Shown here: positions 7,314 through 55,437 of the stretch, in pieces
How positions within the stretch are numbered: position 1 is the stretch's first letter
Layout: each line of letters starts with the position of its first letter
Origin: Escherichia phage Sa157lw
Length of the DNA stretch: 64,000 nt
Sequence record: OK322699.1
Direction: 5' to 3' (one strand)
Position numbers and translations under genes: made by a program
The notes under the pieces: model-generated
Database searches by the model: none
What the model was told of the DNA's origin: nothing
Seen by the model: only the letters and a program-made list of their open reading frames with translations

Positions 7314-7934
7314 TCAATGACGAGCAGGGAGGACTCCCACTGGTTCGATGCCTTCGATCATCAGGGAGTCCACTCCAACATCGCTCAGGCGAATCCAAAC
7401 CTTACCCCCTGGCCTTATCTCATAGATGTTCATCTCGTTTCCAACAGCAGACCCATTCACAAAAACGCCTTGAGTAGCAATCCGAATAGGCGTTTTGGTG
7501 TTGTTGATTATCTGAAAAGATATCGTGATATCCCTTGTCAATTCCACATTTCTTGCTTTTGTATATCTCCTCAATTTTTCAAAGAAAGATGGATTGAATG
7601 TGGCTATGATGCTGTTGTTTTGTGAGTAGTAAATACTGGCAGACAGATAAGGGATTTTTCCCTCATCACCTTTCCTCAATAGAGGGATCGTGGTTTTCCA
7701 GTACGGTCTCAACGCCTGGTTGTTATCATCAAAACAACCGACGGCTTGTATGGTTTGGAAATTCTGGAAGTCTGCCACAACTTGATCCAGTAACTTTTTA
7801 TTACATTTGTCGACATCAGCAGAAATATTGACTGGTATAGTTCTGATTTCAGGATCCCAAAGATCGGTGACAGAAATCACGGACGTGACAAAGATACGGC
7901 AGCTTGTAAGTACAAGCACCATTATCATCGTCAT
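7314..7934 (-). CDS. putative lipoprotein
   Basis: ORF 7314..8012 trimmed to MTMIMVLVLTSC; lipobox L-T-S-C after hydrophobic stretch. Confidence 0.4.
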   Translation of the reverse strand: MTMIMVLVLTSCRIFVTSVISVTDLWDPEIRTIPVNISADVDKCNKKLLDQVVADFQNFQTIQAVGCFDDNNQALRPYWKTTIPLLRKGDEGKIPYLSASIYYSQNNSIIATFNPSFFEKLRRYTKARNVELTRDITISFQIINNTKTPIRIATQGVFVNGSAVGNEMNIYEIRPGGKVWIRLSDVGVDSLMIEGIEPVGVLPARH

Positions 7935-7997
7935 GATCCATTTTCTGAATCCGCGTATCAGGAACACTAAAAAATTCTCCACAGCAAAGGTGCTAAC

Positions 7998-8495
7998 ATG
8001 ACAGGTGTACAATTCAAAAACGAAAATCCTAATTTCGCGGCTTCCGATAAATGGCGCTTAACCATCGGAGACCTGGTGCTGCTAACCCGTTCGATACACG
8101 ACTTCAGTATCCCTGGCGTGTATTCCGAAGGTATCGAAGGCCCATCCCCTGGCGATGTCCTAAACTCTATACCTTCAGAACGTCTCACGTATGACCCCAT
8201 CGTATTTACGTTCGTTATCGATGAGAGTTGGTACAACTGGGAACAGATTTACAATTGGATCGCTTCGAACGCGGGTTCAGATTTAGCCGTCAGTAGAGAT
8301 ATTACGATTGAACTTTTAGACAACATGAACCGTCCTGTTGGGCTTCAGTTGCTTCTAGAAGAAGGGCGACCAACAGCGCTAGACAACGTGTTGGTTGACG
8401 TGGATGCATCGGTTCCTCAGTTGGTCACAACGGTGACATTCAAATATCTGAAACTGACTCCGACCCGCGTAACCCGCGAAATTGATAAACAATAA
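7998..8495 (+). CDS. hypothetical protein
   Basis: 165 aa ORF. Confidence 0.45.
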   Translation: MTGVQFKNENPNFAASDKWRLTIGDLVLLTRSIHDFSIPGVYSEGIEGPSPGDVLNSIPSERLTYDPIVFTFVIDESWYNWEQIYNWIASNAGSDLAVSRDITIELLDNMNRPVGLQLLLEEGRPTALDNVLVDVDASVPQLVTTVTFKYLKLTPTRVTREIDKQ

Positions 8496-24774: not shown

Positions 24775-25224
24775 ATGTTCCTTACATCCTTTATTGACTG
24801 GATGAATATCATAAATGGCCTGAGGATCCCTGTTGGGAACCTCGGGCTTTCTCGTTCTTCTATGCCGCAAATCGATGCCGACAAACAAGAAGATTTTCAC
24901 AAATATCTTGAAGACAACGGCGTGTCTATAGATGCTGCGCAAGTGCCCATCAAAATGCTTCGTCTTACCCAGAACGAAATCAACAAGATGAAGGTCTGGA
25001 AGATTATGAAGCAAATCCGAAATAAGAAACCTATGGGTCGAGTTTGGGTGTCTTCTGACAATTACGTTGTTGACGGATCTCACCGATTTGTCGCTGCGTT
25101 GAACATGGACGGCAAACAGCGCATGAAGGTCTACAAAGTTGATTTGCCAGCGATGGAATTTGTTAAACTCGCTAAACAGTTTCAAGGGGTGCGATACAGA
25201 ACGGTCAGCGATACCCGTTTCTGA
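24775..25224 (+). CDS. ParB/Srx-like nuclease domain protein
   Basis: 149 aa; VVDGSHRFVAA resembles the DGxHR core of ParB N-terminal/sulfiredoxin fold. Confidence 0.45.
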   Translation: MFLTSFIDWMNIINGLRIPVGNLGLSRSSMPQIDADKQEDFHKYLEDNGVSIDAAQVPIKMLRLTQNEINKMKVWKIMKQIRNKKPMGRVWVSSDNYVVDGSHRFVAALNMDGKQRMKVYKVDLPAMEFVKLAKQFQGVRYRTVSDTRF

Positions 25225-25303
25225 ATACGATAGTTTATTGAAACCCTTTACTCAACATGGTGACAGCCCTATCATTTTATCCAATGAAATAAGGAGAATC
25301 ACC

Positions 25304-25993
25304 ATGAAACGTTTAATCCTCGGGGTTGTGCTGGCAGGTCTGGCATTACCCGCCGCCGCCAAGCTGAACTCCACAGGTGACAAACTGTGGTCTGATCTTT
25401 CCTACTGTGCTGGGTTCTCCCAGGCCGTGGCTATAGACAAGTCCGGTTCCATAGAGAATTTCGCTGAACTTTGGAACACGGGTAACGTCTCCACTGCTGT
25501 TGTTAATGCTGGGATTGAGTTCAACCGTTACAAACAGGGAGCCTACAACTTGAAAGGCTACCTGAATGACGATGAATTTAACCGAGGAGGCATGGAGGCT
25601 GGCGATCTCATCATGACTGGCCGTATGGGCACACAAGGCCGTATGACTGTAAGGCAATGCCGTTCTCTCCCCTCTCCGGCATTACAGAAGGGTGTGCAAA
25701 TCGGGCGTCGACATTTGGATCTGATCAATGATGGCAACCAATGCATCAAGGTGTTTGAATATAGTGCCGACCAAGAATCAGATCGACGTTTGAAAAAGGA
25801 ATGGCGGACACGTGCCCTTGGATTGAGAGCATGGCTCGTAGAAAACGATTATTACTACGAGGATCGTGTTCAGAACGGATTGAAAGATCTTTCCACTAAT
25901 TTGTCTGTCAATCTAGACGACCCAAGGCTTTCGCGTGAACTCAAGCAAACACGGATTGACTGCGACAATATGATGAAGGAGAACGAAAGATGA
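25304..25993 (+). CDS. secreted (signal peptide) protein
   Basis: ORF 25139..25993 trimmed to MKRLILGVVLAGLALPAAA with AAGGAG RBS. Confidence 0.5.
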   Translation: MKRLILGVVLAGLALPAAAKLNSTGDKLWSDLSYCAGFSQAVAIDKSGSIENFAELWNTGNVSTAVVNAGIEFNRYKQGAYNLKGYLNDDEFNRGGMEAGDLIMTGRMGTQGRMTVRQCRSLPSPALQKGVQIGRRHLDLINDGNQCIKVFEYSADQESDRRLKKEWRTRALGLRAWLVENDYYYEDRVQNGLKDLSTNLSVNLDDPRLSRELKQTRIDCDNMMKENER

Positions 25994-26310
25994 GAAACAT
26001 AATATTCTTGTTATTCTTTTCTATGTTGGCATCATTCCAAGTTATGGCGACTCCGGCCAGCAAATTGAATATTTGCGCGGCCTGGTTGTCTACTTATCAA
26101 CAATTTCACCCTGATGATAAAGATACATCTATCCTTTTATCGGATTATGAAGGTGAGTTGAAACGCCTTGATCTCTACAGCGTGGATCAAATAGAGAATG
26201 CTTTAGATTTGCCAATGATGGAGTCCGCTGCCGACAATAGCAAACAGACGATCAAAGATCTGACTATGTGTCGGGAAATAGCCACTAATTTCGTTGGAAA
26301 TCAAAGATAA
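25990..26310 (+). CDS. secreted (signal peptide) protein
   Basis: MRNIIFLLFFSMLASFQVMA signal-like N-terminus; ATGA-coupled to upstream gene. Confidence 0.45.
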   Translation: MRNIIFLLFFSMLASFQVMATPASKLNICAAWLSTYQQFHPDDKDTSILLSDYEGELKRLDLYSVDQIENALDLPMMESAADNSKQTIKDLTMCREIATNFVGNQR

Positions 26311-26360
26311 TTTTCAGGTTAAAATTTAACTTCCATTGAACTGAAAGGAAATACTTCGTG

Positions 26361-27167
26361 ATGATTATTACTAAAAAGATCGCCGAATCGATCGTTGAAA
26401 AGAATAAGATGTTCGCGCCCAACAAAGCAAAGGTCATTCTGATTCACGAAGACGGGCGCGTCATCTTCGCTGAGAAGTTTGAGCAGGGTTGTGCTTTCTG
26501 GTTCGCAGATACTATGCGCGAAAGCAAGCTGCAGGGCATCATCTATAAATTGACCCTGGTTGCCAAGCGCAATGATCAGGGTGATTGGGTTACGGTCTGC
26601 GATTTCAGCTCTAAGGTTGAAACGAAAGCCAAAACCCGCCAAGAAAGAATTTTAGAGGCTCAGGAAAAACTTCGGGTCGCTCGCACATCATCCGCGGAGA
26701 AGCCGGAAATAAAACCAGCCGTTATGCCTGTCACCAATAATCCGCTCCCACCTGTGGGTCAAAAGGCTTTCGAACAATATGTTGAAAAGAGAAAAGAAGA
26801 ATCTATGAAGACTCCGGTAGAAAATAATGATGAGTCTGAATTCATTTCAATACGACAGTTGTGCCCGCAAGAACAACGTTATTCTTCTCCAAATGATTTA
26901 TTTGTGTCATTCAGATGCAACGGGAAGATCATCCTGTGTAAAACTCTGCGTGAACAACTACCATGGCCTAACATCAATATGATGGTGAGTCGCAATTTTA
27001 AACGATTTGCTATTAGTGAAGGGAACGATTATCCCGTAAACAAGAGCGGAACGTATGCCAACAAACATATGTGTGGTAAGTTGTCTTTCCCTAACGATTC
27101 CGGAACCATCCGCGTTCGTTTAGAATGGGATGAAACCCTGAACATGTATGTTGGTGATATAAAATAA
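26361..27167 (+). CDS. hypothetical protein
   Basis: ORF 26358..27167 (GTG) trimmed to adjacent ATG. Confidence 0.45.
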   Translation: MIITKKIAESIVEKNKMFAPNKAKVILIHEDGRVIFAEKFEQGCAFWFADTMRESKLQGIIYKLTLVAKRNDQGDWVTVCDFSSKVETKAKTRQERILEAQEKLRVARTSSAEKPEIKPAVMPVTNNPLPPVGQKAFEQYVEKRKEESMKTPVENNDESEFISIRQLCPQEQRYSSPNDLFVSFRCNGKIILCKTLREQLPWPNINMMVSRNFKRFAISEGNDYPVNKSGTYANKHMCGKLSFPNDSGTIRVRLEWDETLNMYVGDIK

Positions 27168-27180
27168 TTCAATAACATTA

Positions 27181-27210
27181 GGGCGGTTATTATTAAACCG
27201 CCTTTTATTT
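27181..27210 (+). terminator. stem-loop GGGCGGTT attatta AACCGCC + TTTTATTT
   Basis: inverted repeat. Confidence 0.55.
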
Positions 27211-27894: not shown

Positions 27895-28182
27895 ATGTCC
27901 GGCGTATGGTGTGATGTATTATTAGTGAGATTTTCAAACGGGATGGATAACCAGATTATTTCATTCTTTTATCCTGTTCCCTTTTCTTCTATGGGTCTGA
28001 CTGTCAAGCGCGTTCTTGACATAGAAGAAAAACTCAACGCTATGCCGTATATGGCGCGACCACACGTGCTGGGTTGTGAACTGTTAAACGAAATGATGAT
28101 CGATGAGAATCTTGTTGAAACAATTATCACGCGTGAACAGATGAAAACTATACTGGCTCAGGGAGAACCCCATGTCGAATAA
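27895..28182 (+). CDS. hypothetical small protein
   Basis: ORF 27808..28182 trimmed to MSGVW behind GGAGG RBS. Confidence 0.35.
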   Translation: MSGVWCDVLLVRFSNGMDNQIISFFYPVPFSSMGLTVKRVLDIEEKLNAMPYMARPHVLGCELLNEMMIDENLVETIITREQMKTILAQGEPHVE

Positions 28183-28492
28183 ACCGTTTGAACTTAAATT
28201 TCGCGTTTGGCATATTCCCCAGGTTCCTGGGATCGCTTTTCATGTTGAGGTTCCAACATTTGAAGAAGCGCAGCGCCTGAAGAATGCTCTGGGTGATTAT
28301 GATTTGTTCCAGTTCAACAACAATATCAAGCCGGATTATTGCAATGCTTCGGGCATTCAGATTTATCAACATGATCTGACCGATGATGATCTTAATGATA
28401 TGGGTCTGGATGATCGTTGGGTTGATATGGAAGATGTTGACGAACTCAACGATTATTTCGAGCATCTGCGCAGTACAGGGTGGGAAATATGA
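28172..28492 (+). CDS. hypothetical acidic protein
   Basis: 106 aa, overlaps neighbours (operon-like). Confidence 0.4.
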   Translation: MSNKPFELKFRVWHIPQVPGIAFHVEVPTFEEAQRLKNALGDYDLFQFNNNIKPDYCNASGIQIYQHDLTDDDLNDMGLDDRWVDMEDVDELNDYFEHLRSTGWEI

Positions 28493-28797
28493 TTTCAAAA
28501 TATATTGTAAAGCCTGGGGATACTCTGTCCAGCATCGCTCTAAAATTATATGGTGATGCCCAACAGTATATCAAATTAGCCAGATTCAACAATATCCAAA
28601 ACCCAGGCCATATCACGGTTGGTCAGGTTATTTGTTTACCCACACCTGTCGAAGACAAAGAACACATTATGATTCCGGTTCAACCGACTCAGAAGTGTTT
28701 GGATGCGATAGCTGGTTTATTTCGGCCAGGTTTTTGTGATGGAACTATTGAACGTCACATTTATCAAGCGATTGTGGAAAACGCAGGTGTAAAATGA
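28489..28797 (+). CDS. LysM domain protein
   Basis: YIVKPGDTLSSIALKLYGD..QYIKLARFNNI..ITVGQVICLP is a canonical LysM. Confidence 0.55.
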   Translation: MISKYIVKPGDTLSSIALKLYGDAQQYIKLARFNNIQNPGHITVGQVICLPTPVEDKEHIMIPVQPTQKCLDAIAGLFRPGFCDGTIERHIYQAIVENAGVK

Positions 28798-29003
28798 TCG
28801 GATTAATTCGTTACCTGTTCATATTCGTAATTTCAACATTCATTTTATTTTTCTTTTTCAAATACTTGAAAGAGACTAAAATCTACCGAAGTAAACGTTG
28901 GCGCAAACGGGTGAGGGTAACTTTCCTGCTGCTGATTTCTTCGGTTACAATAACCGCACTCACATTGGGTGCATATATCTACATTTTTGAAGGGGTACAT
29001 TGA
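28794..29003 (+). CDS. small two-TM membrane protein (holin-like topology)
   Basis: 69 aa; two hydrophobic helices separated by basic loop; ATGA-coupled. Confidence 0.4.
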   Translation: MIGLIRYLFIFVISTFILFFFFKYLKETKIYRSKRWRKRVRVTFLLLISSVTITALTLGAYIYIFEGVH

Positions 29004-29794
29004 TGTTCAAGAAATTGGTGTTCGGTGCAATTATGGTTCTGGCTGCAAGTCTACTTTCTGGTTGTGGTGGCGTTATCGATGAAGGTAATGTCGGCGTTCG
29101 CACCCAATGGGGTGAAGTAGACATGAACCCTGTAACAGCGGGGATCTACACCAGCTTTGTTTCAAGCGTGGATGTTTACACGACCAAAGAAGCCGTTGTG
29201 AGTCTGACTAAAATGACGCCAAAGGCCAAAGACAACCTGACTCTGGAAGACTTGGATGTGGATGTTTATTACACACCCAATGTCGCAAAGGTTCCGTGGT
29301 TCCATACCAAATTTGCTGGCCAGAGCGCTGAACTCGATGATGGCACGATAGCGGTGGGTTTCAATCTAGTTAAAACTGCTGCAGCATCTTCTTCGATGGA
29401 CGCCGTTTCTTCTCTTGATTCTATGACAATTCACACCCAACGTGCTGAATTAGAGAAGATGATTAAAGACCGCACTCAGCAACAATTAGAGACTGCTGCG
29501 CCTGGCATGTTCACAATCACACGCGTGTTGGTCAAAAAGGCGCTGACGGATCCTTCTATTGAGCAGTCTATCCGTGATAATGTTATGGCGGACAAACGAT
29601 TGGATACGGCAAGAAAGAACGTTGAAATTCGCGAGCAAGAAGCCCAAGCGAACCAGAAACTGACCACTTCGCTGACGCCTGAATATCTTCAACATGAATA
29701 TAACATGGTATTACAATCATGTGCCAATAGTGGAAAATGTACTCTGATCGTTGACGGATCCGGCTCAGGTAAAATGCTGAACGTCGGCAAATAA
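29000..29794 (+). CDS. SPFH/band-7 (prohibitin-like) domain lipoprotein
   Basis: signal + lipobox LLSGC; GNVGVRTQWGEV start typical of SPFH. Confidence 0.5.
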   Translation: MMFKKLVFGAIMVLAASLLSGCGGVIDEGNVGVRTQWGEVDMNPVTAGIYTSFVSSVDVYTTKEAVVSLTKMTPKAKDNLTLEDLDVDVYYTPNVAKVPWFHTKFAGQSAELDDGTIAVGFNLVKTAAASSSMDAVSSLDSMTIHTQRAELEKMIKDRTQQQLETAAPGMFTITRVLVKKALTDPSIEQSIRDNVMADKRLDTARKNVEIREQEAQANQKLTTSLTPEYLQHEYNMVLQSCANSGKCTLIVDGSGSGKMLNVGK

Positions 29795-46708: not shown

Positions 46709-47503
46709 ATGGCCATTCTAAAACTTGGCAACCGAGGTTCTGAAGTCAAAGCGCTTCAACAAAGCCTCAACAAAATCGGTTTCTCCCTTACAGCCGATGG
46801 CATATTTGGTAAGGCAACAGAGAATGCTGTCAAATCCGTTCAGGCAGGTGCTGGATTGGTGATTGATGGTATTGCAGGTCCAAAAACCTTCTATGCTATC
46901 CGTAATGCCGGAGACGCTCATCAGGAACATCTTACCGAAGCCGACTTAGTTGACGCAGCGCGTGAACTTGGTGTCGAACTGGCCAGCATGAAAGCTGTTA
47001 ACCAGGTCGAATCTCGGGGAACGGGTTTCACCAAAACAGGTAAGATCAAAACTCTGTTCGAGCGCCACATCATGTATAAGAAAGTGGCGGCTAAATTCGG
47101 ACAAGCAAGAGCCAATGCTCTGTACCAACTCTACCCAACATTGGTTAACCCCAATTCTGGTGGCTATATCGGCGGAGACGCGGAGTTGGAACGCCTTCAG
47201 GGTGCAATCGCCCTTGATGAGGACTGCGCGTACGAGAGTGCGTCCTACGGCTTATTCCAGATCATGGGGTTCAATTGCCAGATATGTGGTTATCCGAACG
47301 CCAAAGAAATGTTCACAGATTTTCTGACTGGTGAACGTGCACATCTTCTGGCATTTGTGAAATTCATCAAAGCTGACGCCAATATGTGGAAAGCATTGAA
47401 GAACAAAAATTGGGCTGAATTCGCCCGTCGGTACAATGGTCCAGCATATGCCAAGAACCAGTATGACACCAAACTAGCGGCGGCATACAAGAGTTTCTGT
47501 TAA
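46709..47503 (+). CDS. endolysin: N-terminal peptidoglycan-binding domain + N-acetylmuramidase-like domain
   Basis: ORF 46691..47503 (TTG) trimmed to ATG behind GGAGG; PG_binding_1-like LKLGNRGSEVKALQ..DGIFG; C-terminal FQIMGFN and WAEFARRYNGPAY. Confidence 0.7.
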   Translation: MAILKLGNRGSEVKALQQSLNKIGFSLTADGIFGKATENAVKSVQAGAGLVIDGIAGPKTFYAIRNAGDAHQEHLTEADLVDAARELGVELASMKAVNQVESRGTGFTKTGKIKTLFERHIMYKKVAAKFGQARANALYQLYPTLVNPNSGGYIGGDAELERLQGAIALDEDCAYESASYGLFQIMGFNCQICGYPNAKEMFTDFLTGERAHLLAFVKFIKADANMWKALKNKNWAEFARRYNGPAYAKNQYDTKLAAAYKSFC

Positions 47504-53811: not shown

Positions 53812-55437
53812 TCATGCGTCTTTACCACCAAAGTTGCCGCCATTATCCTCCAGTTCCGGTTTTATATCAATTGGACCAGGACCAGAAGTAGATACTGGAG
53901 TTGCCCCAGCGCGTGATGCAGCACGACCAGCACCTTCAGCATATTTGATGTTGCCTTCAATAGTCTGCGCCACCGACAACTTATCACAAACTATTTCACT
54001 AGCCAGTATTTTAGGCACTTTTAAAGTATTGGAAACTTCCAACATCTCGCAGATGATACGCATCACGTTTTGCGCCTGAATTTCGGCCAGCTGTGAAAAT
54101 TTCATCAACGCCGTGCCAGCAACCACATTGGAGTAGTTCGATGAATGTAGATGATAGACCTCACCTGTCTTGCGCTGAACTTCAGTCCCACCAATGGTCA
54201 GGTTGTGATCACGACCAACATAGTAACGTTTGTCAAACATCGTCAGATCATAATGATCTTTGACTGATTTATTGACCACGTCCCCGTCAGGAAGCATCTG
54301 CTTATAAGACCCCGAGGAGTGCATCCAATGGAGACGTTCCCCGCCTGGTGTGTCATCAACCTCCATAATATGCCCCGACCGAGATGCCATGACATTGTTG
54401 TAAGGATAACGAGACCCGCCAGCAGAAGGAACCGACACCTCTCCTGTGTTATCAATATCTTGAACACGCCCAGAAGGAGGCGGAGTTTCCTGAACTTTTG
54501 GTGTACGATCGGGGATTGGCTCAGACCATTTACCATTTTGTTGCGCAGGAGCCGCCGATGCTGTCGTAGCAGGACCAGGCCAACGATAACCCAACACAGA
54601 TGAGCGGCTGAAGCGACTCACCTTCACAGAATCTGATTGGTTGCCTCCAATACACCAAACATAATTGGCATCGAATTTCTGTACAAACGCAACGTGTCCA
54701 AATGTTGGGTTGTTGCCACGACGGAATACAACAACTGCGCCGTAACGGGGTTCTGACAAAGGGGAACCCCATTGCAAATATGAACGAGCCAAAGCCGAGC
54801 GCGTTGAAGTGTATCCTGCTTGGATCAACACCCATCCCACAAATGAAGCGCACCAGCTGACTTCATCTTCCGAAGCGCCCAAAGATGTTGTCTTGTGATA
54901 TTCCAAAATCCTTGGGTTATTATTGAATTTGCCAGAATATTCTTTGACACCTAATTCACCACGAGCCACTGTCATCCATTTCTCAGGATCATAACCGTCC
55001 ACAGGCGGTTGAGGTTCTGGTTGTGGGTCGTCTTCAATCTTGACAGGAACATTTTCAACGGCGTTATATTTCTGTCTTTCTATAGATTGAACAACCTGGC
55101 CCAGCGCCAACGGGTTTGTGTCTGAACCATCCGTTGGTGTCGCCGCTGGCCAAACCCAGGCGATACGAATATTTTGGTATGCTTCATCCAAAGCAAATCC
55201 CATAACATCCGACCCGACTGTAATACCCGTTGGAGACCAGCCTAAACCTGCCGAGGAGGCGTTAGATGCTGGCATGAGCATTTTACCCCAAGGCAATAAT
55301 TCGGTAGGTAAGAGAGTGGTATCTTCCGTGTGTACACCATAGATGCGCACAGCGACGCGCCCGTTCTGGTCGGGATCATTCACGTCTTCAACGCGCCCGT
55401 AAAACCAACGCAAGTTGTCTAACATATTGAAACCCAT
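53812..55437 (-). CDS. 5: gp5-like baseplate central spike with CHAP/TIGR02594-like peptidoglycan hydrolase domain
   Basis: N-terminal OB-like GRVEDVNDPDQNGRVAVRIYGVHT, middle KEYSG..WCASFV..GHVAFV domain, Gly/Ser-rich C-terminus. Confidence 0.7.
   Translation of the reverse strand: MGFNMLDNLRWFYGRVEDVNDPDQNGRVAVRIYGVHTEDTTLLPTELLPWGKMLMPASNASSAGLGWSPTGITVGSDVMGFALDEAYQNIRIAWVWPAATPTDGSDTNPLALGQVVQSIERQKYNAVENVPVKIEDDPQPEPQPPVDGYDPEKWMTVARGELGVKEYSGKFNNNPRILEYHKTTSLGASEDEVSWCASFVGWVLIQAGYTSTRSALARSYLQWGSPLSEPRYGAVVVFRRGNNPTFGHVAFVQKFDANYVWCIGGNQSDSVKVSRFSRSSVLGYRWPGPATTASAAPAQQNGKWSEPIPDRTPKVQETPPPSGRVQDIDNTGEVSVPSAGGSRYPYNNVMASRSGHIMEVDDTPGGERLHWMHSSGSYKQMLPDGDVVNKSVKDHYDLTMFDKRYYVGRDHNLTIGGTEVQRKTGEVYHLHSSNYSNVVAGTALMKFSQLAEIQAQNVMRIICEMLEVSNTLKVPKILASEIVCDKLSVAQTIEGNIKYAEGAGRAASRAGATPVSTSGPGPIDIKPELEDNGGNFGGKDA

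Follow-up and report, generated by a model that had tools for sequence, protein, structure and literature searches.

What do the products of two small, overlapping genes do once an Ackermannviridae phage has sent them, as their N-termini predict, into the periplasm of its host? Public databases offer a ready answer for the pair, here called A and B: several GenBank/RefSeq records name A an 'i-spanin' and B an 'o-spanin', 'Rz-like spanin' or 'putative lipoprotein', and phrog_3843, the PHROG that contains B, carries the name 'Rz-like spanin'. The ViI-like phages of this family are widely employed, or have been put forward, as biocontrol agents against Salmonella, E. coli O157, Klebsiella and Dickeya, and A and B are core genes there, routinely annotated as spanins via phrog_3843 and by transfer from phage Marshall. 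We find that this widespread annotation breaks down when the pair is compared with the features by which spanins are defined. Its removal takes away the only claimed spanin of the Ackermannviridae, re-opens how these phages breach the outer membrane, and marks A and B as a family-specific periplasmic effector pair with what appears, from a predicted model, to be a new small helical fold.

The window, by which we mean the whole 64,000-nt stretch analysed (Escherichia phage Sa157lw, OK322699.1, one strand, 5' to 3', with coordinates counted from its first letter), derives from a ViI-like Kuttervirus of the Ackermannviridae. The segment 24700-27200 has 99.8% identity to Salmonella phage AR2819, and 273 phage records matched it. 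The gene pair is laid out as follows:

25291..25296 (+): AAGGAG, the ribosome-binding site of gene A, visible in the sequence itself
25304..25993 (+): gene A, 229 aa, ATG at 25304 and TGA at 25991-25993; phrog_4260
25976..25981 (+): AAGGAG, the ribosome-binding site of gene B, within gene A at its 3' end
25990..25993 (+): ATGA, shared by the start of B and the stop of A
25990..26310 (+): gene B, 106 aa, ATG at 25990 and TAA at 26308-26310; phrog_3843

The same ribosome-binding site is given for Marshall gene A in the supplement of PMC6139136. A first-pass annotation of this DNA had described two consecutive, co-translated genes with an ATGA overlap, and the layout agrees: the stop of A and the start of B share four nucleotides and each gene has an AAGGAG of its own. 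The term co-translated is better replaced by probably translationally coupled, a reading suggested by the overlap. Such an overlap is by itself unremarkable, since 8 of the 64 same-strand neighbouring pairs in the window have one; its weight comes from its retention in four deeply diverged lineages. A and B are always adjacent with a start/stop overlap, even in orthologues that are 28-47% identical, and Kuttervirus, Miltonvirus and two divergent metagenomic contigs of the Ackermannviridae all retain the overlap, which is ATGA in Serratia phage Kevin (Miltonvirus) and in L007 and TAATG in L008.

The pair is also confined in its distribution. Searches with tblastn found 270 phage records with A and 276 with B, the two genes co-occurring in about 270-276; all records examined were Ackermannviridae, with enterobacterial hosts except for one record each labelled Pseudomonas and Enterococcus, which are possibly mislabelled. 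The A profile, run exhaustively with HMMER against 1.84 billion representatives, returned 11 matches, 10 of them from the same family (some as fragments) and the eleventh a marginal match to an unrelated repeat protein, while the B profile recovered 47 clusters, the longest contigs of which are about 150-164 kb, the size of a phage genome. Judged by these searches, both families are restricted to the Ackermannviridae, and in a published comparison A and B count as core genes of the Vi01-like phages.

The location of the two products was judged from their N-termini, MKR-LILGVVLAGLAL-PAAA/KLNS in A and MRN-IIFLLFFSMLASF-QVMA/TPAS in B, where the slash marks the predicted cleavage site:

25304..25360 (+): predicted signal peptide of gene A, residues 1-19, cleavage AAA/K, with a 12-residue hydrophobic core and invariant P16, A17 and A19
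25990..26049 (+): predicted signal peptide of gene B, residues 1-20, cleavage VMA/TP, lacking a lipobox

Each N-terminus has a positive n-region, a hydrophobic core of 12-13 residues and small residues at -3 and -1, and both agree with the criteria for Sec export and cleavage by signal peptidase I (a positive n-region, a core of 7-15 residues, small uncharged residues at -3 and -1, and no Pro at +1). Neither contains a lipobox. The call combines these rules with conservation. P16, A17 and A19 do not vary among 16 A orthologues, in contrast to the hydrophobic core, and the distant A orthologues P0068, P0069 and P0075 end their signals in AWS/E, ASA/A and ANA/G, respectively. The signal region of B is nearly unalignable across lineages, with charge, hydrophobicity and an A-x-A-type site always retained, and the Ala at -1 (A20) is invariant down to 28% identity. 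Because the cleavage-site residues are conserved while the rest of the signal sequence diverges, we take both to be real signals rather than chance resemblances, in keeping with the earlier description of the two N-termini as signal-peptide-like. A rough scan of the ~95 putative genes in the window found a hydrophobic N-terminus, an A-x-A-type site and a soluble domain together only in A and B; the six others that it flagged were small membrane proteins, two lipobox proteins or B itself, and A, for which the scan had taken a wrong upstream start, was added by hand. With cleavable Sec-type signal peptides on both, the products should be periplasmic, and they are very probably exported and soluble there.

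A proteomic comparison bears on whether the hydrophobic N-termini might instead belong to virion or assembly proteins and have no part in export. The mature A and B of phage Sajous1 (gp193 and gp194) are 100% identical to those of the window, and the gene product encoded directly upstream (gp192, ParB-N-like) and the nearby SPFH protein gp200 were both found in purified Sajous1 virions, which lends this alternative some plausibility. The text of the paper on mass spectrometry of CsCl-purified Sajous1 virions, however, names gp192 and gp200 and mentions neither gp193 nor gp194, and both the conserved AxA sites and the invariant pairs of cysteines point to export. A virion role is, in our judgment, extremely improbable, and detection as structural components, which had been named as a finding that would overturn the periplasmic reading, is not reported in that paper.

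The mature proteins were divided into domains from conservation and from AlphaFold2 (AF2) models:

25361..25717 (+): N-terminal domain of gene A, residues 20-138, with invariant Cys35 and Cys119; low AF2 confidence
25718..25990 (+): C-terminal helical domain of gene A, residues 139-229, with invariant Cys147 and Cys220
26050..26307 (+): mature domain of gene B, 86 aa, pI 4.5, a predicted five-helix bundle with invariant Cys29 and Cys94

The AF2 model of A is poor as a whole (pLDDT 46.9), and only residues from about 141 to 229 are moderately confident and helical, with helices at 142-157, 161-180, 186-199 and 207-228 and block-mean pLDDT values of about 57-85. That of B has a mean pLDDT of 85.9, with 89-96 for blocks of the mature part and 82 for the last few residues. 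All four cysteines of A and both of B are invariant, as would fit a single disulfide in each domain under the oxidising conditions of the periplasm; those of B belong to a larger set of fixed residues (C29, W32, Y36, H40, E54, K58, D73, A81, T87 and C94). The Miltonvirus orthologue of A (Serratia phage Kevin, L006 3914-4620; P0075) has 126-134 aa, two cysteines and an N-domain only, and in the window phage phrog_22078 matches residues 1-129 of A. Since the Miltonvirus protein lacks the C-domain and still overlaps B by ATGA, the conserved core consists of B and the N-domain of A, to which the helical C-domain is a lineage-specific addition. Similar cysteine spacing and helix pattern raised the possibility that A consists of B-like domains in tandem, which found no support in BLASTP (E = 0.18), in whole-profile hhalign (15% probability over 21 columns) or in domain-wise hhalign (E = 0.05-0.9).

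Neither protein has a sequence or fold match outside its own family in the databases searched. Pfam, NCBIfam and PADLOC gave no match to A or B, PHROGs returned only the family's own unknown or mislabelled groups, and PDB sequence profiles gave nothing below E = 0.19. Fold searches were run with the confident B model only; Foldseek against the PDB yielded no specific match, and the sole match in BFVD was the orthologue from Erwinia phage phiEa2809. The predicted fold of B is apparently new. A literature search found no experimental test of either protein.

Against this background the spanin label can be followed to its source, which is one unverified student annotation of phage Marshall. The Marshall genome announcement, written for an undergraduate course, does not explain why the pair was so named. 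The spanin census of PMC6139136 entered the Marshall pair as a singleton spanin family, with the curator's remark 'taking his word!' and with both proteins flagged 'too long?'; the combined periplasmic length of the pair, 300 residues, is the largest in that census. Its tables give Marshall A 0 coiled-coil segments, 35% helix and 12% strand, and Marshall B 56% helix. The same work lists Vi01, Maynard, SFP10, SJ2, SJ3, CBA120, ECML-4, PhaxI, AG3 and RC-2014 as spanin-less. We note that the census is in this respect internally inconsistent, counting Marshall among the phages with a spanin and its relatives with the same gene pair among those without one.

Were the label correct, A would be an inner-membrane i-spanin and B an outer-membrane o-spanin that together span the periplasm and fuse the membranes in the last step of lysis. 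Several features invite this comparison. As in lambda Rz/Rz1 and T4 PseT.3/PseT.2, the two genes are adjacent, lie on the same strand, encode envelope-targeted products and have the longer gene first, and their order and overlap resemble those of 'separated' two-component spanins, although this is a weak feature. In a minority clade of the Marshall type B is a lipoprotein, Marshall B beginning MKCKILLLMVLIAG/C with a true lipobox, LIAG/C, and the Ackermannviridae otherwise lack a recognised spanin (PMC6139136). The defining features of spanins are, however, missing from the window pair. An i-spanin retains an uncleaved transmembrane domain in a type II (N-in/C-out) orientation, and lambda-type Rz begins with a hydrophobic segment of about 20 residues; by the rules applied here A has instead the 12-residue core LILGVVLAGLAL followed by the invariant P16-A17-x-A19 (PAxA/) and then Lys. 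With so short a core and an invariant cleavage motif, the N-terminus of A reads as a signal peptide and not as a membrane anchor. Nor is the periplasmic part of A dominated by coiled coil: none is predicted for the pair, and the AF2 model of A combines a low-confidence mixed N-domain with a compact helical C-domain. B differs from an o-spanin in lacking the signal peptidase II lipobox with its lipidated Cys, and its confidently folded helical bundle is unlike the short, proline-rich and mostly unstructured mature part of an Rz1-type protein. Finally, neither protein shows sequence similarity to any other spanin family, and the endolysin gene (muramidase plus PG-binding domain, 46709-47503) lies 21 kb away.

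The lipobox is rare among relatives as well. A strict lipobox occurs in 8 of 49 B orthologues and is absent from the remaining 41, which include every deep-branching one (Miltonvirus, Erwinia phage Bue1, L007 and L008), and in P0005, a near relative of the lipobox clade, Ser replaces the lipidated Cys (AGS vs AGC). In the Guerrero, bering and PS5 records, which carry the name lipoprotein or o-spanin, B is identical or near-identical to the lipobox-less B of the window. Since the lipobox is missing from every deep-branching orthologue, parsimony indicates that the soluble form of B is ancestral and that lipidation is a local gain. About one sixth of the B orthologue clusters are lipoproteins, which implies a membrane-associated role for B in some relatives at least. 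As neither protein of the window phage has a membrane anchor, A and B would be unable to bridge the inner and outer membranes, and from their sequences we conclude that in the window phage they are not spanins, a function to which we assign a very low probability. This outcome indirectly favors the broader reading of the first-pass annotation, in which the two proteins are soluble periplasmic effectors.

A second candidate lipoprotein of the window, encoded at 7314-8012 (-) among structural genes, has the lipobox VLTS/C if an internal start is used; it is apparently the 'putative lipoprotein' of Guerrero, and no type II membrane protein adjoins it.

When the pair is made was judged from its upstream and downstream signals:

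25235..25242 (+): TTATTGAA motif upstream of the -35 element, which precedes several promoters of the same class
25247..25275 (+): putative sigma-70-type promoter, TTTACT-N17-TATCAT, 28 nt upstream of the start of gene A
4990, 23658, 25247, 39841, 45806, 52250 and 63482 (+): promoter-like class TTTAC[TA]-N16-17-TAnnnT
27180..27204 (+): terminator-like hairpin, after the next gene (26358-27167)

All seven sites of the promoter-like class are on the + strand just upstream of open reading frames, with none on the minus strand; simulation gave 1.09 expected sites and a maximum of 4 in 100 runs. These sites are frequently preceded by a GC hairpin and TTATTGAA/TTCAATAA, a motif that is itself enriched in the window (18 copies against 4.4 expected). 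Early promoters of T4 have the -35 element GTTTAC, and since the -35 element upstream of A resembles it, we infer early transcription by the host RNA polymerase. With 3 copies against 1.7 expected, the T4 late-promoter motif TATAAATA shows no enrichment in the window and thus did not help to place expression in time, and a literature search for an Ackermannviridae transcriptome found none. The hairpin at 27180-27204 likely ends the transcription unit that starts at 25247; the 269-aa gene at 26358-27167 that precedes it is not conserved beside A and B in distant relatives. The pair lies within a long + strand block, with a vWA protein, acyl-carrier-like genes and a ParB-N-like gene upstream and a LysM protein, a small membrane protein, an SPFH lipoprotein, HU and a helicase downstream, and the gene order around A and B is maintained in distant relatives.

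Taken together, these features are consistent with a pair of soluble periplasmic proteins, Sec-exported, cleaved by signal peptidase I and stabilised by disulfides, that bind an envelope target early in infection, a proposal that we consider to have about an even chance of being right. A and B would be transcribed early by host RNA polymerase from their own T4-early-like promoter, exported by the Sec pathway and then trimmed by signal peptidase I to a two-domain mature A of about 23.9 kDa and an acidic helical bundle, mature B, of about 9.7 kDa, each domain probably becoming oxidised to form its single disulfide. The conserved start/stop overlap should yield roughly equal amounts of the two proteins, and on that ground they most likely work together, probably as a complex, on a periplasmic or envelope target that they would engage early in infection. 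The first-pass annotation had placed the pair in the periplasm and named antiholins, superinfection-exclusion factors and host envelope modifiers as typical functions of phage proteins there. Its general reading is reasonable, and the location is upheld by the predicted signal peptides; for the three named functions, homology and fold searches returned no match.

The version of this proposal that we prefer is a guard analogous to T4 Spackle (gp61.3), a small helical protein with a cleavable signal peptide that acts in the periplasm as an inhibitor of the gp5 tail lysozyme. B is likewise small, with a predicted cleavable signal peptide and a predicted helical structure, and the window phage is T4-related, has a gp5-like hub and probably expresses the gene early. 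Such a guard would neutralise the tail-tip cell-wall hydrolase of superinfecting sister phages and so bring about superinfection exclusion or protection from lysis from without. The hydrolase in question would be the CHAP domain on the gp5-like tail hub (53812-55437, -), which carries Gp5_OB and a CHAP peptidoglycan hydrolase domain in place of a lysozyme domain; as the target would be a CHAP domain, a guard directed against it would be expected to have a fold unlike that of Spackle. Neither A nor B in fact has sequence or fold homology to gp61.3, and the same holds for RI, the lysozyme inhibitors and any other characterised protein in our comparisons. Taken on its own, the guard function is tentative, a possibility suggested by analogy. 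The hub gene is annotated 'tail associated lysozyme', a name that the CHAP domain makes inexact.

A second analogy comes from the lysozyme inhibitors (PliC/MliC, Ivy), in which one family includes soluble periplasmic and lipoprotein forms, as do the B orthologues. Optional anchoring is known for the PliC/MliC families of periplasmic inhibitors, and the alternation of B between soluble and lipoprotein forms among close relatives (AGC vs AGS) is, by that comparison, typical of such inhibitors. PliC and MliC are beta-barrels, in contrast to the predicted all-helical B, and the pair has no Pfam or structural match to inhibitors of this kind.

The target may instead belong to the host envelope, such as a periplasmic protease, a peptidoglycan enzyme, an outer-membrane biogenesis machine or polysaccharide export, in which case A and B would reshape or stabilise the envelope in favor of phage production and not act against other phages. 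Phages of Salmonella, Escherichia, Klebsiella, Dickeya and Serratia share strongly conserved mature sequences, which fits an Enterobacterales-wide target, and the region also encodes the LysM protein, the small membrane protein and the SPFH lipoprotein. That conservation is, however, equally compatible with a conserved phage target, and neither protein has a domain hinting at an enzyme or a known inhibitor. We consider a host target rather doubtful, although on the available data it is not really distinguishable from the early-binding effector pair proposed above.

Lysis timing offers a further function for periplasmic proteins, with A and B serving as a sensor or antiholin that would bind the periplasmic part of an Ackermannviridae holin and so delay lysis. 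T4 RI, like A and B as predicted here, is a periplasmic phage protein that acts on another envelope protein; the phage family has rIIA/rIIB, no holin appears among its listed core genes, and both A and B are core genes. RI is, however, tethered through a signal-anchor-release N-terminus that it retains uncleaved, whereas A and B have conserved cleavage sites, and neither Pfam, which gave no match, nor the PDB fold searches, which gave nothing specific, revealed a similarity to RI or to holin T. With no known holin partner to link them to lysis, we regard an antiholin role as unlikely. Very improbable, too, is that A and B supply the missing outer-membrane or lysis-control system of the 'spanin-less' Ackermannviridae while acting free of any membrane anchor. 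If this were true they might, for example, bind and destabilise an outer-membrane or cell-wall linkage, and would represent lysis proteins of a new class, built on a new fold.

Returning to the soluble effector pair that we favor, its neighborhood includes several genes with properties of their own. The gene at 28172-28492 (+) is called 'superinfection exclusion protein' in relatives; its acidic, 106-aa product has neither a signal peptide nor a transmembrane segment and no NCBIfam or PADLOC match, and the label looks like an unsupported transfer. It is followed by an envelope-related trio at 28480-29794 (+) joined by 4-nt overlaps, comprising a LysM protein lacking a signal peptide (28480-28797, +), a 69-aa protein whose hydrophobic segments resemble two transmembrane helices (28794-29003, +) and an SPFH/Band_7 lipoprotein with the true lipobox LLSG/C (29000-29794, +), which corresponds to Sajous1 gp200 and is listed in the virion proteome. 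Directly upstream of A and B, the ParB-N-terminal-like gene at 24775-25224 (+; phrog_2859) corresponds to Sajous1 gp192, which was represented by 11 spectra in CsCl-purified virions; in Dickeya phage Limestone it is described as a structural protein. To find a ParB-like domain in a virion is unexpected.
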